59,427 nucleotides of DNA from Promethearchaeota archaeon (GTDB taxonomy: Archaea > Asgardarchaeota > Lokiarchaeia > Sigyniarchaeales > SOKP01): positions 1 through 59,427 of the forward strand of contig RDOE01000011.1 in assembly GCA_011364975.1 (NCBI GenBank), given 5' to 3'. Shown piece by piece: positions 24,072 through 40,292 of the stretch. The translations under genes were made by a program, and so were the position numbers. Positions within the stretch are counted from its first letter, which is position 1. Each line of letters starts with the position of its first letter. The notes beneath the pieces are model-generated. The model was not told where the DNA came from. It was given only the letters and a program-made list of their open reading frames with translations, and made no database searches.

Positions 24072-24920
24072 ATGAACATCTGGGTCTTAGATTCTGAAAG
24101 CGGTATTACTCTACTATATAAAGCTTACATGGATCTCCCTTTAGATGAGGATCTTGTGTCTGGACTATTAGCTGCCTTAAATCAATTTACAGTATTTGAA
24201 TTCCAACAAGGGATTGAAAGTATCGATATGGGGGGTTTGCGATGGGTATATCTTGAAGAGAAAGAAGCAAATCTCCTATTTGTAGCAGCAGCAGATAAAA
24301 ATGTTAGTTCAATTATTTTGAAGGCTCGATTAAGTATTATAAAACAAACTTTTCTGGAAAAGTACGTATTAAGTGATCTAGAAAAATGGAAGAAAACATG
24401 GAAAGGAAATACAGACCTCTTTACTCCTTTTAAACAGATTATAGATGAATATTATTCCCAATGGTTAAGAGCAGAAGATATCTCTACAATCGCGGAGTAT
24501 TGGGACATTTTGGGGGTATTCCAACAAATATTAAATCTACTTATGAATGTAATTGAAGCTCATGTGAAACCAAACCAGAGGGAAGTTATCTATAATCGAA
24601 TAGAGTCTATGTTTCAAAATTATTTAACTCATGATTATGTCAAGAATAATCCAGAATTGAGTAAATTTGCGTTTAATAGAATGTCAGGTATTAACATTAT
24701 TAATATAGATCCAACAAATTGTGATATGCTTGTTGTAGAAAAACAAGTTATTAATCTCATAAGAAGAATTGTTGAAATGGTAAAGAAAGAAGAAGGTTAT
24801 TATACCAGTTTAAAATATTTCATTGAAGAAAATATATTTGAGTACTTAATTTCAAATGTTTCATTATTAAATGAATTAAATTTATTCAAATTCTTTTTAA
24901 AGCTTTTCTTATTAAATTAA
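24072..24920 (+). CDS. Longin-domain protein (eukaryotic signature type)
   Basis: IWVLDSESGITLLY..DEDLVSGLLAALNQF..IESIDMG..LLFVAAAD. Confidence 0.8.
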   Translation: MNIWVLDSESGITLLYKAYMDLPLDEDLVSGLLAALNQFTVFEFQQGIESIDMGGLRWVYLEEKEANLLFVAAADKNVSSIILKARLSIIKQTFLEKYVLSDLEKWKKTWKGNTDLFTPFKQIIDEYYSQWLRAEDISTIAEYWDILGVFQQILNLLMNVIEAHVKPNQREVIYNRIESMFQNYLTHDYVKNNPELSKFAFNRMSGINIINIDPTNCDMLVVEKQVINLIRRIVEMVKKEEGYYTSLKYFIEENIFEYLISNVSLLNELNLFKFFLKLFLLN

Positions 24921-26437: not shown

Positions 26438-27706
26438 TTAAGGAAAAACTCCTCTTAATTCTATTGCTCTCGCTATACGAGATACAGCTATAATATATGC
26501 TGCTGTGCGAAGGGGAATCTTTCTCTCTTGAGAAATTTGATATGTTTCTTCAAACGCTTCTATAATTATCCTTTTTAACTCTTCATTAATTCTATCAAGT
26601 TTCCAAAAATAAGAATGAATATCTTGAATATATTCAAAATATGATACACAAACACCTCCGCTATTTGCTAGGATGTCAGGTAATACATGTATTCCTTTTT
26701 TATATAATATTTTATCAGCTTCAGGGGTTGTAGGACCATTTGCTCCTTCAACGATTATTTTACATTTTATCTTTTCAGCATTTTTATCTGTAATTTGGTT
26801 TTCTATTGCAGAAGGTATTAACACATCACATTTAGAAGTTAGTAATTCATCATTTGAAATGAGTTTATAATTATTATCCTTATAATCTTTTAAATAATTA
26901 CCCTCTTTTGTCCATTTTAATAATTTCTCAATATTTAATCCATCTCCACAATAAAGACCAGTCGATATGTCAGATATTGCCAATATCTTACATCCATGAT
27001 TATATAATAGTTCTGCAATCGTCCCTCCAACATTACCAAATCCTTGAACAATAATGGATAAATCTTTTAATTTTAAATTAAGTTTCTCACACAATGCTTG
27101 GAGTACAAAGTACAATCCCATACCTGTGGCTGGTTCTCTCCCTACTGAACCACCTATTTCGATAGGTTTTCCTGTTACAACTCCAGGTACAGATCTACCC
27201 TTTTGCATAGAATACACATCCATTATCCAAGCCATGATTTGTGCATTTGTATTTACATCTGGTGCTGGAATATCAATATCAGGGCCTATAATATTGATAA
27301 TTTCTGCTGTATAGCGACGTGTGAGCCTTTCCAACTCTGCTTTGGATAACTTCTTTGGATCAACACATACACCTCCTTTAGCTCCACCCAATGGGAGATT
27401 AAGAAGTGAGGTTTTCCATGTCATCCACGTAGCTAATGCCTTAACCTCATCTAAATACACATGAGGAGAATACCTTATACCTCCTTTTCCCGGACCTCGA
27501 ACAGTAGAATGATGAACTCGATATCCTTCAAAAATTTTGATTGAACCATCATCCATCTTTATCGGAATTGATACTATAAGAGCTCTTTCTATTCTCTTAA
27601 GATATTCTGTAATATTAGGATCAAGTTTCATTTCTTTAGCCACAATATCAATTTGGGTTTTTGCTACTTCATAAGGGTTTATTTCTTCAACCATTTTTAT
27701 ATTCAC
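26438..27706 (-). CDS. gdhA: Glutamate dehydrogenase (Glu/Leu/Phe/Val family), copy 1
   Basis: [58 protein letters not shown]. Confidence 0.95.
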   Translation of the reverse strand: MNIKMVEEINPYEVAKTQIDIVAKEMKLDPNITEYLKRIERALIVSIPIKMDDGSIKIFEGYRVHHSTVRGPGKGGIRYSPHVYLDEVKALATWMTWKTSLLNLPLGGAKGGVCVDPKKLSKAELERLTRRYTAEIINIIGPDIDIPAPDVNTNAQIMAWIMDVYSMQKGRSVPGVVTGKPIEIGGSVGREPATGMGLYFVLQALCEKLNLKLKDLSIIVQGFGNVGGTIAELLYNHGCKILAISDISTGLYCGDGLNIEKLLKWTKEGNYLKDYKDNNYKLISNDELLTSKCDVLIPSAIENQITDKNAEKIKCKIIVEGANGPTTPEADKILYKKGIHVLPDILANSGGVCVSYFEYIQDIHSYFWKLDRINEELKRIIIEAFEETYQISQERKIPLRTAAYIIAVSRIARAIELRGVFP

Positions 27707-27807: not shown

Positions 27808-27821
27808 GGGATATTTTTCCC
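27808..27821. promoter_or_regulatory. Palindromic operator GGGA-N6-TCCC between divergent gdh genes
   Basis: GGGA-TATTTT-TCCC(AA) in a very AT-rich spacer; same architecture at 37886-37899. Confidence 0.6.
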
Positions 27822-27922
27822 AAGAAAATTTAAAATTTGTTCAAACATAACCCTAATTTATTATCAAAAAGTGAAAAATGTTAACTTTTTAAAATAACTA
27901 TCTCCGCTGAGTAAATGAAATT

Positions 27923-29173
27923 ATGACAGAAAATTTAGATCCGTTTAGTATTTCTCAGAAGCAACTTTATGAAGCATGTAAAATCAAGGGATATGATACC
28001 CAGATTTACGAAACACTTAGTGTACCTGAAAGATTTGTTGAAGTTAAAATTACGATGAAAATGGATAATGGTACTATAAAAACGTTCAAGGGATTTAGAT
28101 CACAATATAATACAGCACGTGGTCCAGGTAAGGGAGGAATTCGCTGGCATCCAGAAGAAAGTGCTTCATTGGTAAAAGCATTAAGTGCGTGGATGACATG
28201 GAAAACGGCTTGTGTTGATATCCCTCTAGGGGGTGCTAAAGGAGGGATTATATGTGATCCTAAGGGAATGAGTAGTCGTGAACTTGAAACATTAGCCCGA
28301 AGTTATATTCGACAACTTGCTGATGTTCTCGGTCCAAATGTGGATGTTCCCGCCCCAGATGTATATACTAACCCACAAATAATGGCTTGGATGATGGATG
28401 AATATGAAAAAATAACACGAAAGCATGTACCTTCAATTATTACGGGTAAGCCATTACCTTTAGGAGGCAGTGCTGGGCGTTCTATAGCAACTGCACAAGG
28501 GGGGGTTTATACAATTAGAGAAGCAGCTAAAGATATAGGTTTAAATCTTAATGGTGCAAAAGTCGCAGTACAAGGATACGGTAATGCGGGTTCTTGGGCT
28601 GCTAAATTACTTCATGATGAATTTGGTTGTACCATAATTGCTGTTTCTGATTCAAGAGGAGGGATATATGCTAAGGAGGGGCTTAATCCACATAAAGCGG
28701 CAGAACACAAAGAAAATACAAGATCGGTGATTGGATTAAAAGGGACTGAAGAGATTACAAATGAAGACTTATTAGAATTAGAATGTGATATTCTTATTCC
28801 TGCAGCATTAGAAAATGTAATTACCCATGAAAACGCACAAAATATAAAAACCAAAATTATTTGTGAACTAGCAAATGGTCCTACTACACCTTATGCTGAC
28901 GATCTTTTATTCGATAACAATATCCTTGTGATTCCCGATTTCTTAGCAAACGCAGGTGGTGTAACAGTTTCATATTTCGAAATGGTTCAAGGATATTATC
29001 TTTATTTTTGGACAGAAAAAGAAGTGTTTGCAGCACTTGATAGGGTAATGACAAATGCATATCGCTCCACTATCGAAGAAGCCAAAAAGTATAACACCCA
29101 TAATAGAATGGGTGCTTATAGTATATCTGTTGAACGCGTACTAGAGGCTATGAAATTAAGAGGTTGGATATAA
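27923..29173 (+). CDS. gdhA: Glutamate dehydrogenase, copy 2 (divergent)
   Basis: [53 protein letters not shown]. Confidence 0.95.
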
Positions 29174-29429
29174 ATTATATATCAACACCCATTATCTTTT
29201 CTATTTAATTTTTTTACATTTTTTTTCGAATTAACCATTACTTAACCGATAATAAATTAAATTATTAAGTTTATACAATAACTTTGTTAATCCAATTTTA
29301 ACTTTATATATGAAATTTCGTTTATTTTTAAAATTAAAGGAAATGATCCTATATATTTTATGTTGATAATATTAATTAATTGTAGATTTTATTGATTAAT
29401 TATAAATTGCAGTTTTCAGATGATAGCTT

Positions 29430-30989
29430 TTGGATAAAATTGGTATTATGGATCTGGGATCACAATATACACACCTTATCGCTCGACGAATTAGAGAATT
29501 GGGAATTTATTCTGAAATTTTACCATATAATGTCTCGCTTCAGGAATTAAGAACTCTATCTCCTAAAGGGATAATATTATCTGGTGGCCCAAATAGTGTA
29601 TATGAATTAAATAGTCCAAAATTACCATCAAGATTCTTTAATTTTATAAGGGAAGAGCAAATTCCTGTTTTAGGAATCTGTTATGGGCTACATCTAATTG
29701 TTCATCAACTTAATGGAGAAATTGAAGCTCATGATAAAAAGGAATATGGAAAAGTAGAATTAGATATTTTAGATATTGATGAGCTTTTCCATACATTAGA
29801 TTCTCCTCAAATTGTGTGGATGTCCCACGGAGATCAAGTAAAATCTTTACCACTTGGGTTTAAAATTCTTGCTAAGACAAACAATTGTCCGATTGCAGCT
29901 TATAAAAGTCAAGATTCCTTATTTTATGGAGTACAATTTCACCCGGAAGTTGCACATACCCCAAATGGAAAAATAATCTTAAAAAATTTTATTGAAAGAG
30001 TTGTAAAAGCAAAAAAAGGATGGATTCTTGAGGATTGGATTGAGCAATCGATTGAACAAATAAAGATGACAGTTGGTTCTAAAAATAGGGTGATCTTGGG
30101 ACTAAGTGGTGGTGTAGATTCCTCAGTTGTAGCACTTTTATTACATAAAGCGATAGGAGATAGACTGCATAGTATTTTCGTAAATAATGGTGTATTGAGA
30201 AAAAATGAAGTGGATGAAGTCCAGGAAATCTTCAAGAATAAATTAGGATTCAAAAATTTTCATTTCATTGATGCTGAAGACTATTTCTTAAATAAGTTAA
30301 AAAATATTAGTGATCCTGAAGAAAAGCGAAGAATAATCGGTCATTCATTCATCGAGGTATTTGAAAACCAAACTAAAGAGTTAGAAAAGAAATATCCGGA
30401 TATAAAATTCTTAGCTCAAGGCACAATATATCCAGACAGAGTTGAAACAAGCACAACCAGCGATACGTCATCAAAGATAAAGTCACATCATAACTTAACC
30501 TTGCCTGAAAATATGAGTCTTAAAATTATTGAACCATTAAGGGATTTATATAAGGACGAAGTGCGGAAAATTGGCTTAAAATTAGGTTTACCGGCAGAAA
30601 TTATACAGCGTCATCCTTTTCCAGGTCCGGGATTAGCTGTTAGAATAGTTGGTCCAATTGATAAACAAAAGCTTGAAATTTTACGGAATGCTGATGAAAT
30701 TCTTATTGAAGAAATTAAAAAGGCTATGTTATATGATTCATTATGGCAAGCATTTTGTGTCTTTTTACCTTTAAAAACTGTTGGTGTTATGGGTGATTAT
30801 CGCACATATGAATATATATGCTCTATAAGAATCGTGGAATCTTTAGATGCCATGACGGCAAATTTTGCGAAGTTAAATTGGGATTTATTGGAGAAAATCA
30901 GTTCAAGAATCGTAAACGAAGTTAAAGGGATAAACAGGGTTGTATATGACATTTCTAACAAACCTCCAAGTACTATTGAATATGAATAA
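29430..30989 (+). CDS. guaA: GMP synthase (glutamine-hydrolysing), single-chain
   Basis: DLGSQY, LGICYG, QFHPEV, LSGGVDSSV, QGTIYPD, IKSHHN, RHPFPGPGL, KPPSTIEYE. Confidence 0.97.
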   Translation: MDKIGIMDLGSQYTHLIARRIRELGIYSEILPYNVSLQELRTLSPKGIILSGGPNSVYELNSPKLPSRFFNFIREEQIPVLGICYGLHLIVHQLNGEIEAHDKKEYGKVELDILDIDELFHTLDSPQIVWMSHGDQVKSLPLGFKILAKTNNCPIAAYKSQDSLFYGVQFHPEVAHTPNGKIILKNFIERVVKAKKGWILEDWIEQSIEQIKMTVGSKNRVILGLSGGVDSSVVALLLHKAIGDRLHSIFVNNGVLRKNEVDEVQEIFKNKLGFKNFHFIDAEDYFLNKLKNISDPEEKRRIIGHSFIEVFENQTKELEKKYPDIKFLAQGTIYPDRVETSTTSDTSSKIKSHHNLTLPENMSLKIIEPLRDLYKDEVRKIGLKLGLPAEIIQRHPFPGPGLAVRIVGPIDKQKLEILRNADEILIEEIKKAMLYDSLWQAFCVFLPLKTVGVMGDYRTYEYICSIRIVESLDAMTANFAKLNWDLLEKISSRIVNEVKGINRVVYDISNKPPSTIEYE

Positions 30990-31082
30990 CTGATTTTATC
31001 TTTTTATAACACTAATGTTTTATTTCTAATAGATTTTAATTGCTAATTTTATTAAATAACTTATAATTTATGATTTATTCAA

Positions 31083-32885
31083 ATGATAGTTATGAAAGAA
31101 GAAGAGATTGCGTGGGATTTAAGTCATTTATTTAAAAATCAAAATGATCCCAGAATTGATGAAGTAATTCAACATTTAGAAAAGAAAGCGGATCAGTTTG
31201 TTGAAAATTATAAGGGTAAAATAAAATCACCAGATTTTAAAGCAAAAGATTTACTTTATTTATTTCAGCAACAAGAAGCATTTGAAGCTAATATGGATGA
31301 GTTAATGACTTATGCATATATTCTATATGATGCTAATATGAATATTCCCGAATCCGAAACATTGAAAAATAAGACAGTTCAATTTGCTACGGAATTATCT
31401 CAAAAATTGACATTCTTAGAATTAGAAGTTGGTAAGTTTGTATATCAAAATGAAGAGTTATATAAAGATCCTCTACTTAAAAATTACAAGCATTATCTTG
31501 AAAAAGTAAGAAGAAAAGTTCCCCACTTACTTTCAGAGTTAGAAGAACAATTGATATTAGAAAAAGATCAATTTGGAATTATGCAATGGAGTCAGTTACA
31601 GGGTAAATGGTTAGGAACCAGAAAATTTAAAGTTATGGTAGAAGGAGAAGAAAAAATATTATCATACAATGATGCAAATAGTCTACTAAGTCATCCGGAC
31701 AGAAATACAAGAATATCAGCCGATAAATCAATTTATGCCACTTTAGGAAAAGATGAATATATTTTTTCAACGGCGTTAAGAAATATTTGTGCAGATTGGA
31801 TGAAAACCGTTGAAAGAAGGCATTATGACAACGCAATTCATGATAGCTTAATAATAAATGATTCATCACACCAAATTATCAAAAGCTTGATGGAAACAGT
31901 TGAAAAAAATGTAGATGTTTATAGAAGGTACATGCATTTAAAAGCTAAACTTCTCAATCTACCTAAATTAAATTATGCTGATGTTCTCGCTCCACTTCTC
32001 GAAACTCCAAAAAAGGTATACTCATGGCAAGAAACTAAAAAATTAATTCTTGAAGCCTATGAAAAATTTGACACGGAATTTTCACATTATGCAAGAGAGA
32101 TGTTTGATAAAAATCATATAGATGCAAGTACCAGAGATGGAAAACGAAATGGTGCTTATTGTTCTTCATGGTATAACGGAAAATCAGCATTTATATTAAT
32201 GAATTATACAGGTCAATTGCGAGAAATTTCAACATTAGCTCATGAAATGGGTCATGCCATACATGATTATCTAGCTATGAAGAATCAAACCTATTTTAAT
32301 CTCCATCCGGGATATACTGTCGCTGAATGTGCTTCTATTTTTGGGGAATTGTTACTAACGGATTTATTATTAGAAACCTCTGAATCAGATGTAATAAAAA
32401 AGACGATTTTAGCTAATTTACTTGATGAAGCAGGTATGGCTGTTTTTCAGGTAAGTGCAAGATTCTGGTTTGAGCAAAATTTATATGACGCTATAACTCG
32501 CAAAGAATATTTAGATGGTCAAACAATATGTAAATCCTGGGTTAATGGAAGAGATAAAATTTATGGTGATTCAGTGGATTTTCTTGATGAGCTTATTTGG
32601 GAATGGACTATGAAACCTCATTATTTTAGGGTAGGCCTAAGATTTTATAATTATCCTTATGTTTATGCTCAGTTGTTTGTATATGCATTGTATCAGAAGT
32701 ACAAGACTGAAGGAAAATCCTTTATTCCTAAATTTAAGAAGCTTTTGAGTTCTGGTGGTAGCTTATCTCCAGAAGAGTTAGGTAAGATTGTTGGTTTAGA
32801 TATTTCAAAACCAGAATTTTGGGAATTAGGGATAAAACAATATGAAGAATTTGTAAATCAATTGGAAAAATTGATTAAAACATAA
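31083..32885 (+). CDS. pepF: Oligoendopeptidase F (M3B)
   Basis: WDLSHL, GKRNGAYC, TLAHEMGHAIH, AECASIFGE, FYNYPY. Confidence 0.95.
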   Translation: MIVMKEEEIAWDLSHLFKNQNDPRIDEVIQHLEKKADQFVENYKGKIKSPDFKAKDLLYLFQQQEAFEANMDELMTYAYILYDANMNIPESETLKNKTVQFATELSQKLTFLELEVGKFVYQNEELYKDPLLKNYKHYLEKVRRKVPHLLSELEEQLILEKDQFGIMQWSQLQGKWLGTRKFKVMVEGEEKILSYNDANSLLSHPDRNTRISADKSIYATLGKDEYIFSTALRNICADWMKTVERRHYDNAIHDSLIINDSSHQIIKSLMETVEKNVDVYRRYMHLKAKLLNLPKLNYADVLAPLLETPKKVYSWQETKKLILEAYEKFDTEFSHYAREMFDKNHIDASTRDGKRNGAYCSSWYNGKSAFILMNYTGQLREISTLAHEMGHAIHDYLAMKNQTYFNLHPGYTVAECASIFGELLLTDLLLETSESDVIKKTILANLLDEAGMAVFQVSARFWFEQNLYDAITRKEYLDGQTICKSWVNGRDKIYGDSVDFLDELIWEWTMKPHYFRVGLRFYNYPYVYAQLFVYALYQKYKTEGKSFIPKFKKLLSSGGSLSPEELGKIVGLDISKPEFWELGIKQYEEFVNQLEKLIKT

Positions 32886-32972
32886 CAATCAAATTTTCTT
32901 TTTTTAATTTTATAACTAATAGACCATAAGAATTTCTAAAAAAAGTATAATTAAAAAAAATATAAAAAATAT

Positions 32973-34646
32973 TTATAACATTATTTTTATTTCTTCACCA
33001 AATAGAATCTCTTGAGCCACTTCAAAGGCTATATTATAATCGAAAATCTTTTTTCCTTTTGCCATAGTTGCCATTTCGAATATTTTGCTCTCAATCTTAT
33101 ATTTCAATCTTCCGATATCAAGTGCTCCAATCCCAAAAATACCTGGAATTAATTCATCATTATAAAAATTTGGTTTCATGCCTTCAATTCCATATGGGGG
33201 GACCAAGTTAATATCTACCACTATTTTATTAGGAGGGAGCTGTTTTAATATCTTTTTAGAGATCATTTGAACTCCAGCTTTACCAACTGACCAAATAATA
33301 TCTGCATCTTTTACTAAATTATAGTAATCTTCTTCAGTTTTGGTAACAATACCTTTTATGGGTTCCGACTTTTTTCCTGCCTTTATTGTCAATTCGTTTG
33401 CTAAATTTGTAACATGATCTTCCCTTCGGGAAGAAATTGAAGCACTTGCACCTATTTGAGAAGCAATAATCGCACTAATCTGACCTACTGGCCCTGTACC
33501 CCCAAGAATTGCTATATTTTTATTTCTAATAGTTTCAATATAATGTAATCTCGCAACTTCGATTGTTTTAGCCACAATAGCTGAAGCTGTTGTATGAGCG
33601 CCCCTAGGATCAATAATAACAGAAGATTCAAAGGGTGATACTATGGCATCTAAGACGTTTTTGGCAATTTTATCTGCTTCTTCTACATTAGAACCTCCTA
33701 TGAAATAAACTGTTGGTGCCCCCACTTTTCTAGAAAACATAGCATCTTGAACTAATTTGGTTACTTGATCTGCTGTCATCTTACTATAGGGAATAACAAT
33801 GTCAAATCCCGCATCATAACCCATATTTATGTCAAAAGGAGAGCAATAATCATCTGTATCGAAAAAATGCAATATTTTTTCTTCTCTCTCTCTCTTTTTA
33901 ACTTTAATAGGCATTATTTCTAAAACAGTAGATTTCAAAACATCATCAATAGAATTTGCCTCAGTAAGTCCTTTTACTACTTTTTTCACACTTACCAGTT
34001 CATGCTGAATATTTAATTCATCTGCCAAAAAAACTATTCCATCGAAATTTCTTTTATCACAAATAAATAAACCAGTGATGTTATACTTATCTATCTTTTT
34101 AGCGAGTTCTAAGACTCCCATCATCATCCATGATTCTCGAACTTTAAATTTCATCTCTTCTTCTTCTAATTTGCACTCATCTTTTAAGTATTGCCTCCAT
34201 ACGGTCAATTGCTGAAATCGAAGATCATTATAGTGAACACGGCCCATCTCCTTATACTTTTCAATTTCGTCAGAAAATTTTTTTAATAACTCTTTCTTAT
34301 TTAATAGCGGAGATGAGATATGATTTAAAGCATATTCTGGAATACCTACCATGTTATAAAGTATTCCTTCCCTCTTAAAAATGCTTACAAATTCATCCTC
34401 ATCATCCACCATTGCCTCACTTTCTCTTAATCCTTTATCTTCAGCAGCAAAATCAGGCTGGTATTGCTTAATTAATCCTTTAATAAAGTCCATGTACTCT
34501 CTTGAAATGAAATATAGATCATCGATTATTCCATTTTCCTGCTTGGGTTTTTGAACAGACCAGTCCACAGGAAACTCACTTTCTACTAAAATTATTTTTA
34601 ATTTCTTATTTTTTAATGGCTTTAATTCCAAAACTTGCATATTCAA
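32973..34646 (-). CDS. NAD(P)-dependent methylene-H4MPT dehydrogenase (MtdA/B-like) fused to an unknown ~250-aa N-terminal domain
   Basis: C-terminal part: DTDDYCSPFDINMGYDAG, VQDAMFSR, FIGG, DPRGAHTTASA, LGGTGPVG, DINLVPPYGIEG, GIGALDIG.LKYK. Confidence 0.85.
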   Translation of the reverse strand: MNMQVLELKPLKNKKLKIILVESEFPVDWSVQKPKQENGIIDDLYFISREYMDFIKGLIKQYQPDFAAEDKGLRESEAMVDDEDEFVSIFKREGILYNMVGIPEYALNHISSPLLNKKELLKKFSDEIEKYKEMGRVHYNDLRFQQLTVWRQYLKDECKLEEEEMKFKVRESWMMMGVLELAKKIDKYNITGLFICDKRNFDGIVFLADELNIQHELVSVKKVVKGLTEANSIDDVLKSTVLEIMPIKVKKREREEKILHFFDTDDYCSPFDINMGYDAGFDIVIPYSKMTADQVTKLVQDAMFSRKVGAPTVYFIGGSNVEEADKIAKNVLDAIVSPFESSVIIDPRGAHTTASAIVAKTIEVARLHYIETIRNKNIAILGGTGPVGQISAIIASQIGASASISSRREDHVTNLANELTIKAGKKSEPIKGIVTKTEEDYYNLVKDADIIWSVGKAGVQMISKKILKQLPPNKIVVDINLVPPYGIEGMKPNFYNDELIPGIFGIGALDIGRLKYKIESKIFEMATMAKGKKIFDYNIAFEVAQEILFGEEIKIML

Positions 34647-34652
34647 ACTCCT

Positions 34653-35270
34653 TTATGTGATAATTTTGTTTATATTTATGTTATTTAAATCGATTTTTTT
34701 GACTTTGATATTGTAATTTTCAAAAAGTATTTTCAATTCTGAAAATATCTCTTCATGGGTAAAGTGCATAATTGAAAATGCATCGTTTCTAATCATATTA
34801 GCAATATCTAATACTTTTTTTACAATCCACTTAGGTTTTATAGTTAGTTGAATGGATTTTTTTTGAGAATCTATCTCATTTTTTAATAATTCCATCCATA
34901 TCTTCAAACTCTGAGCTTTATAAGAGTCTTCTTTATGTTCATCACAGAGAGTGGCATATTCCATTTCTAACTCATTAATTAACGCCTCCTTTTCAATGAT
35001 GTCTACGGTTAGGAAATCCCTTACATTATCAGGAATATCAATACTGTAATAAGGAATCCAGAATTTATCTAAAAATCGGGAAAGGACGCTTTCATAGCTC
35101 TTTTTTATTTCTTCTTCGTTTAAATCTATAATGGCAAACCGAAATTTTTCTTTTTTCAAAAAGGATTTCAAATTTTTCAATTGCGAATTATCTAATCTCT
35201 GATTTTTATTTCTTATTAAATATAGAGTAATTTTTTTATTTTTTATTGGCTTAATTTCTAAAGTTTCCAT
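34653..35270 (-). CDS. Hypothetical protein, stand-alone paralog of the N-terminal domain of the downstream Mtd fusion
   Basis: LEIKPIKNKKI vs LELKPLKNKKL; IPYYSIDIP vs ILYNMVGIP; QSLKIW..LLK.E vs QQLTVW..YLK.E; WIVKKVLDIA vs WMMMGVLELA. Confidence 0.8.
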   Translation of the reverse strand: METLEIKPIKNKKITLYLIRNKNQRLDNSQLKNLKSFLKKEKFRFAIIDLNEEEIKKSYESVLSRFLDKFWIPYYSIDIPDNVRDFLTVDIIEKEALINELEMEYATLCDEHKEDSYKAQSLKIWMELLKNEIDSQKKSIQLTIKPKWIVKKVLDIANMIRNDAFSIMHFTHEEIFSELKILFENYNIKVKKIDLNNININKIIT

Positions 35271-35686
35271 TTTCAGTAATCTCTTAAAATTTCTTTGTTA
35301 ACGAATAACCTAACTGGATCAAAATTAAATTGGATTTTTTATTATTAAAAAAAATGACAAGATCAATTACGTTGAATTTGATAACATTAATTTTTATTTT
35401 TATAAAAAAAAAATGACTAAAATATTTGTCAAATAATAAAAAATCTTTATCAATAAAAAAAATTGAATACTATACGATTATTTTTGATTTTATATTCTGT
35501 TTCAAAGGTTAATTATGATAAATTTTTTTGTTGAAAATTCGCATTTATTCTAATTTGAATTGCAGAAAATTGAGTTATATTGATAGAACGCTCCTTTAAA
35601 CATAATCAAGAGAGAAGAGAAAAGTATAGGATTACAGAGAAATATGGGATAATATAATTCCATTTCTTAAACTTTTAAGGTAATAA

Positions 35687-37351
35687 TTAAAGTCTTATTG
35701 ATTGAGGGTAACTTCCAGAATAAATTTCCTTTTTAACTAGATCTAAATCGAGTTCTTCTTGAGTTTTTATTTCTAAATTCCAGTTATTACATACTTCAAT
35801 TGCCCGTTGAGAAATACAAGCAATATCATCACGTTTTAATAAATTTAATCTAAACTTTCGAACTCCTGCAAGAAGTTGTTGAATACCAGTCCCTAGTTTA
35901 GATACAAAATATGTATACACTCCTACTGCCGATGCAGGAATATTAAAATCTTTAAATTCTCGTTTTAAATTATCATATTCTACAAAAATTTCATTAAGAC
36001 TAATATCATCAAGATTTTTATGTTTTTCTAACCCTAAACTTTTAACATTTGCGGAAGTGAGTTCCTTTTTTTCAACAAGTTCTGCGATATAGCGCGATTT
36101 CATTGCAGCAGTAATTGGGGCTCTTGCCATGGCTATGCATTTCACATAGGGGGCACCCATGGCAAGAGCCTTGAACATCTGAGTTTCGTTTGCAAAACCG
36201 CCTGCGATGGCAATGGTTGGTATTTTCACATTCGGACTTTTATTTTTAATCATATCTAAACAACCAGTTACTAATGCTTCTAAATAAACAGTAGGAATGG
36301 AGCCTTCATTCATCATACTTACAGGACTCATCCCAGTACCTCCTCCGGCACCGTCAAAAGTCATTCCATCAACTCCTCCTTCAACACCCAATTTTAAGAT
36401 CCAAGCCGTTGCTGCTGGTCTATAGGCTCCTGTTTTTATAAAGATATTTCTAACTCCATTTGAACGTATTTGATCTATCTCTTCAAGTATTTCATAGGAA
36501 GTACATAATCCCACTCTACTATGTCTTTCAAAGTCGGCGATTATCCCTGTCTTCCATTGCTCTTTTACAATTGGATCTGAGGGATCAGGAAATACTAAAT
36601 AACCACGATTTTGCAAAATCTGAGCCCTTTCTATCGACTCTAATCTCACTTCCCCACCTATAGCCTTTGCTCCTTGACCAAATTTGATTTCTAACGATTC
36701 AACATCTAATTGTGAGGTTACATAATCAAAAACTCCTAACCTAGTATCTTCAACGTTTTTCTGCACGATTATATCTCCATGTTTACCATCCCATAACTCT
36801 CTATATGTTTTAACTCGATACTTCATATCAGCTGTATCGGTCACCCTCGGATAAATGGCGTGATTAGCAAATTGAGCATAGGGATCCATACCAACAACAT
36901 TTTCACCAATCGTAATACTGATGCCCGCTAACGCTGCACCTTTTGCAAGACCTTCCCAATTACGTTTTGCAACATAAGTACTTCCTAAACCAGCAATCAC
37001 GAAGGGTAATTTTTGTAAAATGTTTCCCCAATATGAGGTTAAGTTTACATTAGGAAAGATAACTTTATCTTCATCCGGATCGATACCTTGAGCACCTCTC
37101 ACCTCAAATTGGATTTGAAAATCACCATAAGATAATCCATAGTCTTTGGGAGAACCTGCTGTGGAATTACCATAATATTCTCTACGGGGGTATAGGACTT
37201 CCCTACCTCTTAATGCAGATTTAGAAACTTCACAAAAAACAGGGCAATCTGCTACGCATATTGGGCAGAGTCCAGACTCGCATGCATCCTCTACCCGAGT
37301 TCTGGCACCAATCATACTTGATTGGTTTGAAAGCATGGAATATTTTGTCAT
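35687..37351 (-). CDS. FMN-binding glutamate synthase family protein (stand-alone GltB FMN domain)
   Basis: SGLCPIC..C..CE, GENV, EIKFGQGAKAIGGE, IKTGAY, DGAGGGTGMSP, AIAGG, KALAMGAP. Confidence 0.92.
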   Translation of the reverse strand: MTKYSMLSNQSSMIGARTRVEDACESGLCPICVADCPVFCEVSKSALRGREVLYPRREYYGNSTAGSPKDYGLSYGDFQIQFEVRGAQGIDPDEDKVIFPNVNLTSYWGNILQKLPFVIAGLGSTYVAKRNWEGLAKGAALAGISITIGENVVGMDPYAQFANHAIYPRVTDTADMKYRVKTYRELWDGKHGDIIVQKNVEDTRLGVFDYVTSQLDVESLEIKFGQGAKAIGGEVRLESIERAQILQNRGYLVFPDPSDPIVKEQWKTGIIADFERHSRVGLCTSYEILEEIDQIRSNGVRNIFIKTGAYRPAATAWILKLGVEGGVDGMTFDGAGGGTGMSPVSMMNEGSIPTVYLEALVTGCLDMIKNKSPNVKIPTIAIAGGFANETQMFKALAMGAPYVKCIAMARAPITAAMKSRYIAELVEKKELTSANVKSLGLEKHKNLDDISLNEIFVEYDNLKREFKDFNIPASAVGVYTYFVSKLGTGIQQLLAGVRKFRLNLLKRDDIACISQRAIEVCNNWNLEIKTQEELDLDLVKKEIYSGSYPQSIRL

Positions 37352-37376
37352 TTTAATCTCGTTTTCAAAAGTTTAA

Positions 37377-37571
37377 TTATTCATATATAAATAAGCAACT
37401 TGGTTTTTTCAATTCGTTATTATTAGTCTGAAATTCTTCAGAACAGTTCCAATTGTAATTTCTTCGAGGTTGATTAAATAAAGATCCAAATAAGATGGAG
37501 TTACTTTTACAAATATGACAAACATTTCTTCCATAGGAATATTCAATACCGCATTCAGGACATTTTATCAT
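37377..37571 (-). CDS. Small zinc-ribbon protein
   Basis: CPECG...CHIC; strong SD GGAGG upstream. Confidence 0.75.
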   Translation of the reverse strand: MIKCPECGIEYSYGRNVCHICKSNSILFGSLFNQPRRNYNWNCSEEFQTNNNELKKPSCLFIYE

Positions 37572-37603
37572 TATTTTTTGATCCTCCTCCGTTTGTGTTC
37601 TTT

Positions 37604-37858
37604 TTATATTGCTTCGTATAAGCGTGGATATTTCGATTCATAAATTTTAAGCTTATTAGGATACTTTTGTTTAATCCTTCTAATAACTTTAGAAAGTGAA
37701 CTTCGATGTTGATATCCCATAGCAAAAGACCATTTTTCTGCGGTTGATTTTCCTATTTCTTTCAACTTATCTAAACATATTTGTTCATATGTTTTAAATA
37801 CGGCTTCTGAGGCGATAGTCACCACCTCTGGACGTTCATTCGATCCTTCTACCAACAT
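37604..37858 (-). CDS. Small winged-helix DNA-binding protein (putative regulator)
   Basis: CLDKLKEIGKSTAEKWSFAMGYQHRSSLSKVIRRI..LKIYESKYPRLYEA helix-turn-helix-wing layout. Confidence 0.65.
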   Translation of the reverse strand: MLVEGSNERPEVVTIASEAVFKTYEQICLDKLKEIGKSTAEKWSFAMGYQHRSSLSKVIRRIKQKYPNKLKIYESKYPRLYEAI

Positions 37859-37885
37859 TTTTCATTCACATAGATTATTTATAGT

Positions 37886-37899
37886 GGGAATGCTTTCCC
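37886..37899. promoter_or_regulatory. Palindromic operator (T)GGGA-N6-TCCC(A) upstream of the wHTH / glutamate synthase-like cluster
   Basis: TGGGAA-TGCT-TTCCCA, 28 bp upstream of the wHTH start and downstream of TTTATAAA (37935-42). Confidence 0.6.
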
Positions 37900-38258
37900 A
37901 ATTTATTGCTTTGTTTAATAATATATCGTGAAAGTTTATAAATTTTACTTTTGATGGTTTTTCCTGAATATTGTTTAGATAATATGAGGGAATCGAGACC
38001 TTTGTTCAATTATTACCGTAAAGCTTAATAAAGTTACCGATTTGAGGTGAAAAATTTTAAATTTAAAACCGACAAAATAAATTGAAAGTATTACTTTAAT
38101 TTCATTACCAGTTAACAATAATTTAATAAGGATGGTATAAATAGAGAAAATTTATTATTCAATTCATAAGATTGTATTCTTTATAGTTTCGATAAATTTA
38201 ATAATTTAAGTCTGCTAGTTTTTCTTTAGTCTACTGAAGTTTTTTTTAAAGAAAAAAA

Positions 38259-39800: not shown

Positions 39801-40292
39801 TTATGTTTTTAACTTTTCTTTTAATAGAAGTTCATCAAAAGAACTACCTTCTTTAATAACATTAAGTATGAGATGAGTATTAGTTCCTTCAACATAAGGA
39901 GATGCATGTATTTTTTTAACCATTGCGCTTAATTCGAATCGACTTTTAAATCGGGCTAATATTAATGCATCATAGTCACCGGTTATATCATAAACTCCGA
40001 ATACATTAGGATTTTCTGCAATTTCTTTTTCTATATCTAACATTTTACCTTTAGAGATTGTAATTTCTATTACTGCAATAATATTATATCCTAATTTTTC
40101 ATAATCAATTTGAATTCCATAATTTTTAATGATACCACTTTCCTCTAATTTATCTATATGACTTTTAATGGTTATCGGTGATTTTCCTAATTTTTCAGCA
40201 ATATGATGATACTTAGCTTTACCATCTTTACTTAGAACAGCTAAGATATCTAAATCTACTTCATCACTAGAAGGCAAATCTTTATGTTCCAT
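39801..40292 (-). CDS. Lrp/AsnC family transcriptional regulator
   Basis: DEVDLDIL..L..DGK..IAEKLG..LEESGIIK.Y..IDYEKLG, YDITGDYD. Confidence 0.95.
   Translation of the reverse strand: MEHKDLPSSDEVDLDILAVLSKDGKAKYHHIAEKLGKSPITIKSHIDKLEESGIIKNYGIQIDYEKLGYNIIAVIEITISKGKMLDIEKEIAENPNVFGVYDITGDYDALILARFKSRFELSAMVKKIHASPYVEGTNTHLILNVIKEGSSFDELLLKEKLKT

Follow-up and report, generated by a model that had tools for sequence, protein, structure and literature searches.

The nitrogen repressor NrpR of methanogens binds the palindromic operator GGAA-N6-TTCC. Other archaeal factors, TrmBL1/Tgr and SurR of the Thermococcales, activate from upstream of the B recognition element and TATA box (BRE/TATA) and repress from downstream of them. 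The heptads of the omega repressor of plasmid pSM19035 and the half-sites of nuclear receptors are boxes set in direct or inverted repeats, and those of nuclear receptors also in everted ones. An excerpt of PMC4902934 reports that NrpR responds to 2-oxoglutarate, and an excerpt of PMC9426492 describes OxsR of Haloferax volcanii, which is nearly a single winged-helix domain, as a specific transcription factor. The element described here, GGGA-N6-TCCC, was found in contig RDOE01000011.1 (assembly GCA_011364975.1) of a Promethearchaeota archaeon of the order Sigyniarchaeales, in a stretch of 59,427 nucleotides which we call the window. A sequence-only reading of this DNA had proposed it as the operator of a nitrogen regulon, run either by a small winged-helix protein (P0001) encoded beside one of the copies or by an NrpR-like factor. 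Our comparison of related genomes makes it rather probable that the element marks an order-wide regulon of amino-acid and 2-oxoacid catabolism in Lokiarchaeia-type Asgard archaea, read by a factor other than P0001 or NrpR. The exact copies in the window are the following.

27808..27821: box pair in the inverted form, GGGATATTTTTCCC, located between two divergently oriented glutamate dehydrogenase (gdh) genes
37886..37899: box pair in the inverted form, GGGAATGCTTTCCC, 27 bp upstream of the gene for P0001, a protein of 84 residues
321..334: third exact copy of GGGA-N6-TCCC, within the open reading frame (ORF) 90-1361 of the minus strand

The first two copies are present as had been claimed, each followed by AA, and the remark that no further exact intergenic copy exists is right for the window, where the third copy, being coding, probably stands outside the regulatory system. 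The gdh site had been called central. This is roughly true, as it lies 101 bp from the ATG at 27923 of the plus-strand gene and 113 bp from the likely ATG at 27694 of the minus-strand gene, and thus not exactly in the middle. The distance to the GTG at 27706 is again 101 bp, but since the ATG at 27694 is the likelier start this 101/101 bp symmetry is an artefact. The TTTAAAA noticed near this site is found at 27829-27835. The second site was said to lie between a TATA box and a start codon, and it does precede the ATG at 37858 by 27 bp; TATA-like strings nevertheless flank it on both sides (TATAAATA on the minus strand at 37876-37883 and TTTATAAA at 37935-37942), leaving the order ambiguous.

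Three copies in the window compare with 0.30 expected, and none of 100 dinucleotide shuffles contained at least three. The source genome (G000; 3.74 Mb in 200 contigs, 30.6% G+C, completeness 99.25%) was divided by a crude longest-ORF map, which left 468 kb of intergenic DNA. It holds 21 exact copies, seven of them intergenic, against 0.69 expected intergenically from a first-order Markov model. Among the 64 palindromes built from a four-letter half with three G/C, N6 and its reverse complement, the GGGA one ranks first with these seven intergenic copies and the runner-up has three. When the spacer between GGGA and TCCC was varied from N0 to N12 the intergenic counts were 1, 0, 1, 0, 0, 1, 7, 3, 1, 5, 1, 0 and 2, with a peak at N6 only. 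The excess in intergenic DNA, confined to this spacing, indicates that GGGA-N6-TCCC is a real signal and not a product of chance. Other intergenic copies of the genome lie 100 bp before the ATP-citrate lyase (acl) operon on contig C163, about 40 bp before the gene for a 72-residue zinc-ribbon protein (P0003) on another contig, in the spacer before a gene for transcription factor B (TFB) and ahead of a YbjN-like gene on C111, a contig of 2.5 kb.

Footprints before orthologous genes support the earlier view that the two window sites are copies of one real cis element, which relatives conserve ahead of acl, of the 84-residue gene, of the zinc-ribbon gene and of iorB. The palindrome is exact at 24 of 25 acl loci of the genus, G000 included, and has one mismatch at the remaining locus; the count leaves out locus L081, where the contig begins inside the gene. 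Three further acl loci examined in the genus all have it in exact form. The six-base spacers vary freely (AATCCT, ATTACA, AAAGAA, AGCGCT and others) and the palindrome is followed in these promoters by a conserved ATAT..ATG..AAAA-TTTTTAT(T/A)AAA. Before the 84-residue gene the exact palindrome, again with a variable spacer, is found at 17 of 20 loci of the genus, the others being one with a mismatch, one cut by a contig end and one without the element; in genus g12 it is exact at all three loci.

The zinc-ribbon and iorB promoters have shown that the two boxes need not face each other. The 24 strong P0003 loci include 11 exact palindromes, two with one mismatch, ten direct repeats and a single locus with neither (23/24 in any form). 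The direct repeat reads TGGGAA-N5/6-TGGGAAGG and stands immediately 5' of TTTAAATA. Five weaker zinc-ribbon matches, belonging to other paralogues, have no box pair upstream. At iorB the copy of G000 is a one-mismatch palindrome, and the 16 loci with upstream DNA comprise five exact palindromes, two with one mismatch (G000 among them), four GGGA-N7-GGGA and five TCCC-N7-TCCC. All 16 pairs occupy the identical place, ahead of a conserved ATTAT..AACGAATAATTTAATTAAATT. At one of the TCCC-N7-TCCC loci (L286, genome G008) three TCCCATTAT boxes follow one another every 11 bp (CCCCATTATCTTCCCATTATCTTCCCATTAT), a hint that the element can grow by the addition of boxes in phase.

The gdh promoters bear on whether the two window copies share a function at all, because the palindrome, exact or with one mismatch, is absent from all 24 orthologous gdh promoters of congeners. 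It could be argued that the copies are alike in sequence only and that the gdh palindrome is an accident of one lineage, the more so as the TFB copy is likewise unique to G000. We regard this as unlikely. Two boxes of the same sequence are held in the homologous place by 14 of those 24 promoters, as a direct repeat TTCCCAA-N4/5-(T)TCCC(C/A) with the same 11-bp phase, and a fifteenth was recognized by eye at locus L028. Moreover, the switch between inverted and direct forms recurs at iorB and at the zinc-ribbon gene, and by chance the entire genome should hold only about 0.7 intergenic copies.

As inverted and direct forms replace each other at orthologous promoters while the phase is kept, the unit is the single GGGA/TCCC box. 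On balance, these alignments favour an element made of two such boxes in either orientation, with their GGG:CCC cores 11 bp, that is one helical turn, apart. The direct forms also speak on an element of RNA, namely a hairpin in the 5' leader, its stem formed by GGGA and UCCC around a loop of six bases, which would act on stability or be recognized by a protein. Folding energies of -5.2 to -9.0 kcal/mol are indeed predicted for such hairpins, the variable middle resembles a loop and the sites of the zinc-ribbon gene may be transcribed. Nevertheless, direct repeats are unable to pair, the boxes are invariant over about 100 loci with no compensatory change in the stem, the Z-scores of the hairpins are just -0.5 to -2.1, and at acl and iorB the site lies ahead of the TATA-like string. 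A hairpin is for these reasons very improbable.

The position of the pair in the promoters, judged by eye, falls into two types. At acl it ends about 22 bp before TTTTTATTAAA, and at iorB and in the gdh promoters of congeners it precedes a conserved AT-rich core. At the 84-residue gene the pair abuts a TATA-like string. In the zinc-ribbon promoters of the palindrome type a conserved AAAAAGTTTTTAAAT is found about 27 bp upstream of the pair, which would place the pair near the start of the transcript. We propose that a predicted sequence-specific DNA-binding factor, conserved across the order, reads the boxes, probably with one subunit or one dimer on each box and cooperation across the helical turn, because box orientation flips between orthologous promoters and the phase stays. 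At acl, iorB and gdh the element would be well upstream of the core promoter, in an activator-like position, and at the winged-helix and zinc-ribbon genes it would be next to or downstream of the TATA-like string, in a repressor-like one. From these two types of position it follows that the factor may activate or repress according to place.

Proximity to TATA-like strings could also mean that the boxes belong to the core promoter itself, as G-rich BRE-like elements read by one of several TFB paralogues, with a BRE-TATA-BRE arrangement serving both directions at gdh. The proximal box of the direct-repeat promoters does abut such a string (GGGAAGG, then TTTAAATA), acl has an extra GGGAAAA ahead of TTTTTATTAAA, the spacer ATATTTTT of the gdh site resembles a TATA box and one copy of G000 lies before a TFB gene. 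This explanation is weakened by the many spacers which are not TATA-like (AGCGCT, ACTCCT, ATTGCC), by the acl pair, which stops some 22 bp short of its TATA-like string, and by the TFB site, which is conserved at none of 20 loci. We hold it to be quite unlikely. The promoter of this TFB paralogue was for its part tried as a conserved member of the regulon and dropped, the site being unique to G000 (0/20).

Two of the operons behind the conserved sites were assigned from their domains. The first gene of the operon on C163 matches PF16114 (253 bits) and PF24948 (225 bits), the next one PF00549 and PF00285, and a gene of the Iso_dh type comes then; by these domains the operon is predicted to encode ATP-citrate lyase, composed of a Citrate_bind and ATP-grasp subunit and a CoA-ligase and citrate-synthase-like subunit, together with isocitrate dehydrogenase. 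On contig C165 the order of the genes is iorB, iorA and a subunit of ADP-forming acyl-CoA synthetase. The IorA equivalog TIGR03336 is matched with 704 bits against a cut-off of 650.9, and the adjacent iorB reaches 158 bits with the IorB models, under their cut-offs, its ORF start having been called too late. Near copies of G000 with one mismatch or in direct repeat there are genes for aminotransferases, acyl-CoA dehydrogenases, thiolases, methylmalonyl-CoA mutase, lysine 2,3-aminomutase and a peptide-binding protein, whose presence is suggestive of a catabolic theme. A one-mismatch site before sucC (C163:7931) was rejected, since the ORF map placed the start of sucC too late and the site probably falls within it.

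The members with conserved sites would accordingly be acl with isocitrate dehydrogenase, ior with the ADP-forming acyl-CoA synthetase, gdh, the small zinc-ribbon gene and the cluster of winged-helix, zinc-ribbon and glutamate-synthase-like genes. Transamination to glutamate, glutamate dehydrogenase, 2-oxoacid:ferredoxin oxidoreductase with acyl-CoA synthetase, isocitrate dehydrogenase and ATP-citrate lyase point together to fermentation, and the theme of the regulon seems to be the catabolism of peptides and amino acids with the citrate/2-oxoglutarate/glutamate node, not the assimilation of ammonium. The shared element thus does tie together genes around glutamate and 2-oxoglutarate, as the sequence-only reading had it, and it was the nitrogen regulon proposed there that failed.

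Matches had been expected at glnA, amt and glnK. The sole glnA of G000 has no site with up to two mismatches within 400 bp upstream, and neither Amt (PF00909) nor PII (PF00543) was found in this genome, whose completeness is scored at 99%. The possession of glnA and four gdh paralogues with no Amt or PII fits the release of ammonium over its scavenging. A repressor like NrpR with shifted specificity (GGGA for GGAA), which senses 2-oxoglutarate and runs a nitrogen regulon, would account for the common 4-N6-4 geometry with one base different per half, and the genes with sites surround the very metabolite to which NrpR answers in the excerpt of PMC4902934. Still, PF01995, the regulatory domain of NrpR, has no match in G000 (99.25% complete) where the controls Methanocaldococcus jannaschii and Methanosarcina acetivorans were positive, and the direct-repeat forms are ill-suited to a symmetric NrpR dimer. 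With no NrpR, Amt or PII, a glnA devoid of a site, and conserved sites at the acl/isocitrate dehydrogenase operon, ior, the zinc-ribbon gene and the winged-helix cluster, the set is not a classical nitrogen regulon, and we give a factor of the NrpR type next to no credence.

The other reader that had been proposed was P0001, as an autoregulated winged-helix protein. The fold is borne out by an AlphaFold2 model made with 17 orthologues (helices 24-35, 40-47 and 52-65, strands 70-73 and 80-83; core predicted local distance difference test, pLDDT, above 85), in which P0001 is a minimal winged helix of three helices and then a two-stranded wing. Foldseek returned generic matches only (Z-alpha, MarR, ArsR, PadR and Sso10a-type, best E 0.02), no Pfam family, PF01978 included, or NCBIfam family was matched, and in the Atlas only small clusters that are unnamed or FaeA/ArsR-like were obtained, at 0.85 to 0.90. 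The possibility that P0001 shuts down its own operon and through the palindrome also governs gdh, acl and the other targets, perhaps with the zinc-ribbon protein, draws on this modelled fold, on the palindrome kept before its own gene (17/20 loci of the genus and 3/3 of g12) and on the linkage of the cluster to gdh in ten other genomes. In addition, another motif, GTATTCGTACAC, stands upstream of both P0001 paralogues on contig C120, as fits a family of autoregulators with separate operators.

The distribution of the family is what speaks against it. Among other members of the genus, 23 of 24 genomes have it, and among other genera of the order none of 16; by profile it is limited to g1 (6/6), g12 (4/5), g20 and g23, with none in 31 genomes from nine other genera of the family. 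The profile search found no member in the g5 genomes G030 (91% complete) and G034, both of which have the exact palindrome at acl (2/2 g5 genomes; 3/4 in g12). In g14, g2, g8 and g9 acl comes immediately after another gene and lacks a separate promoter. In these genera the element is found at iorB, as exact palindromes in g2 (2/2), with one mismatch in g8 and in g9, and as direct forms in g14; at the same gene, g15 has two exact palindromes in tandem (G061) and g5 has direct forms. The scan of iorB in other genera comprised 13 loci, with a pair scored in eight; among the rest, one is cut by a contig end, three have no upstream DNA and one has several GGG boxes fitting none of the scored forms. 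Among the genomes of the order with the element are single-contig ones (G032 exact; G038 and G057 with one mismatch).

The recognition helix moreover differs between clades (HRSS versus NPNA/S) while the boxes are constant. A reader must be present wherever conserved sites are, and the element occurs in g2, g5, g8, g9, g14 and g15, none of which has the P0001 family. P0001, being narrower in range than the element, is most likely a regulated gene of the regulon, to judge from these distributions, and as the reader it is improbable. The complex predicted for P0001 and its 64-residue zinc-ribbon neighbour scored 0.00, the fold of the zinc-ribbon protein itself being uncertain, and bears on binding in neither direction. 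Searches in the order's other family likewise gave no member of the zinc-ribbon family and no counterpart of the glutamate-synthase-related protein of the cluster.

The tandem P0001 paralogues on C120 (1332-1553 and 1774-1995, both on the minus strand) each have GTATTCGTACAC, of the form GTA-N4-TAC, some 20 bp upstream of a TATA-like string; this motif is a candidate operator distinct from the GGGA element.

A protein with a helix-turn-helix, DUF134, was also tried as the reader. It is encoded by a single gene in 53 of 61 genomes of the order, so that its presence matches the range of the element, and in G000 it lies beside a site with one mismatch, in G030 beside an exact one. Within 260 bp upstream of it a GGGA pair was found in none of 28 relatives, and for want of such boxes near its own gene, and on that account alone, DUF134 was set aside as the master regulator. 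AT-rich palindromes, ATGAATAATTATTCAT for example, are conserved in its upstream regions (L220-L248) instead.

In the g5 genome G030 there are 49 copies of GGGA-N6-TCCC against 19 of a reversed control pattern. About 40 are coding; crude ORF calls place eight of the 49 in intergenic DNA, of which three stand before genes for a PorC/VorC-type subunit, a class IV aminotransferase and an OsmC-like protein; the acl copy lies inside an open frame upstream of the acl start.

Several points weigh against an order-wide regulon of this kind. Its reader is a protein deduced from the sites, the positions relative to TATA-like strings were judged by eye, the intergenic calls depend on the crude longest-ORF map and the related genomes are not independent samples. 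The TFB promoter copy of G000 is conserved in none of 20 congeners, one clade of gdh orthologues (L043-L050) has no boxes, and the copy at C172:14273 has a G+C-rich spacer and may be due to chance. The YbjN-like gene on C111 has no orthologue in 30 congeners, so that conservation of its site cannot be checked. Direct repeats with N7 are not enriched in G000 (three intergenic, background 1 to 6), most of the 49 copies of G030 are coding, and the neighbours of one-mismatch sites are merely suggestive in a genome rich in catabolic genes.

Even so, we lean towards an operator of a transcription factor, with its regulon, in a lineage that has had none described, with an orientation-free grammar which is uncommon. 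The literature searched contains no Asgard regulon, operator or pair of factor and site, and nothing on the GGGA motif. The element is invariant in many species ahead of enzymes thought to carry energy metabolism (2-oxoacid oxidoreductase with acyl-CoA synthetase, gdh, and acl with isocitrate dehydrogenase), and free orientation of boxes at a fixed phase is an operator grammar that merits a structural explanation. A bolder proposal, which we consider possible but rather less than probable, is that of an order-wide master regulator of peptide and amino-acid fermentation, reading two GGGA boxes one turn apart with no regard to orientation and being neither NrpR nor P0001. If this were true, Asgard archaea would have their first defined regulon, and the reader could be of an undescribed family or use an unusual, orientation-blind recognition of DNA.

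The genes of the window on which these arguments touch are listed here.

26438..27706, minus strand: paralogue of glutamate dehydrogenase, whose homology match begins at the likely start, ATG 27694
27923..29173, plus strand: glutamate dehydrogenase of 416 residues, of the Pfam ELFV type, also recognized by NCBIfam
37604..37858, minus strand: P0001, minimal winged-helix protein of 84 residues by its AlphaFold2 model, first gene of the cluster
37377..37571, minus strand: P0002, zinc-ribbon protein of 64 residues by the family profile, with the paralogue P0003 elsewhere in the genome
35687..37351, minus strand: glutamate-synthase-related protein of 554 residues, of the flavin mononucleotide (FMN) type; PF01645, 47.8 bits against a cut-off of 20.4
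34653..35270, minus strand: protein of 205 residues of no known family (no Pfam match at E <= 0.1), in the same cluster
32973..34646, minus strand: protein of 557 residues with Pfam Mpt_N, in the same cluster

The minus-strand gdh matches the Pfam domains ELFV_dehydrog and ELFV_dehydrog_N and the NCBIfam model GdhA_Arch with 526 bits, under the equivalog cut-off, and the 416-residue gdh has orthologues in 29 of 30 congeners. The order of the cluster, with the winged helix (84 residues) followed by the zinc ribbon (64) and the FMN glutamate-synthase-related protein (554), is as the earlier reading gave it, and the cluster is within about 10 kb of gdh in the ten other genomes of the genus mentioned above. 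A gene of the P0002 type comes after the winged-helix gene at 9 of 19 loci, and P0002 and P0003 match each other by BLASTP with an E of 4e-7. The PF01645 match of the 554-residue protein spans only positions 191-302 of the 369 of the model, and an enzymatic activity as glutamate synthase is putative. Its homologues are labelled 'glutamate synthase-related' or 'FMN-binding glutamate synthase family protein' in Promethearchaeota/Lokiarchaeota assemblies, and a search of solved structures gave no sequence match. Residues 256-547 of the 557-residue protein resemble the NADP-dependent methylene-tetrahydromethanopterin dehydrogenase MtdA (PDB 1LU9, 6TGE and 6TLK, E about 1e-28); an MtdA-like C-terminal half is thus clustered with an FMN glutamate-synthase-related gene, and the N-terminal 255 residues have no assignment. 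Proteins of 205 residues beside two sites proved to be unrelated to each other and were rejected. The Lrp/AsnC gene at 39801-40292 was also rejected, its upstream spacer having a single lone GGGA. Among RNA runs, one matches part of the window (0.05 of the sampled words), as contigs.

The small zinc-ribbon family, with the signature CxxCG..EY..WNC....L(I/V)YE, recurs beside glutamate and glutamine enzymes. One member is about 3 kb from a gdh paralogue and another is in the glutamate-synthase-like cluster, and weaker members are found near gdh in five other genomes. Two genes of the family in G000 outside the window are the following.

C33:58667-59083, minus strand: zinc-ribbon family member directly upstream of glnA (C33:57231-58637); hhalign probability 95%
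C132:29692-29919, minus strand: third zinc-ribbon gene

Neither of these two genes has a box pair upstream. An inverted repeat with 9-bp arms, TGGAGTTCA..TGAACTCCA, surrounds an AT-rich stretch upstream of the third gene (C132, about 30000-30100). From their neighbourhoods, the zinc-ribbon proteins could be regulators of glutamate and glutamine enzymes at the level of protein. Longin-domain proteins are frequent in Asgard genomes, and a 282-residue protein of the window (24072-24920, plus strand) has a weak longin match (Fuz_longin_1, E 0.009, under the cut-off).

With the NrpR operators of methanogens (nif, glnA) the element shares a 14-bp dyad with four-base halves and six free bases, its place in archaeal promoters and, on the excerpt of PMC4902934, the link to 2-oxoglutarate. 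It differs in one base per half, the boxes here being GGGA/TCCC and invariant in the loci examined, in its direct-repeat forms and in its genome, since G000 has no gene for NrpR, nif, amt or glnK and its glnA is no target. P0001 has the size and, by its model, the fold of archaeal single-domain winged-helix regulators such as OxsR, as these are described in the excerpt of PMC9426492; unlike them it belongs to no Pfam family, PF01978 included, and its range is narrower than that of the element. The regulons of TrmBL1/Tgr and SurR have other motifs, and the orientation of the boxes is free here. The likeness lies in one archaeal factor with one short motif, a catabolic regulon and an effect set by position, which for the present element is what we propose. 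The operators of the omega repressor and of nuclear receptors belong to unrelated organisms and proteins, and the flexibility seen here is only that of evolutionary variation between orthologous promoters. They are nevertheless alike in their short boxes, direct or inverted, which stand at a fixed spacing with a unit of its own, here a presumed one, on each box.

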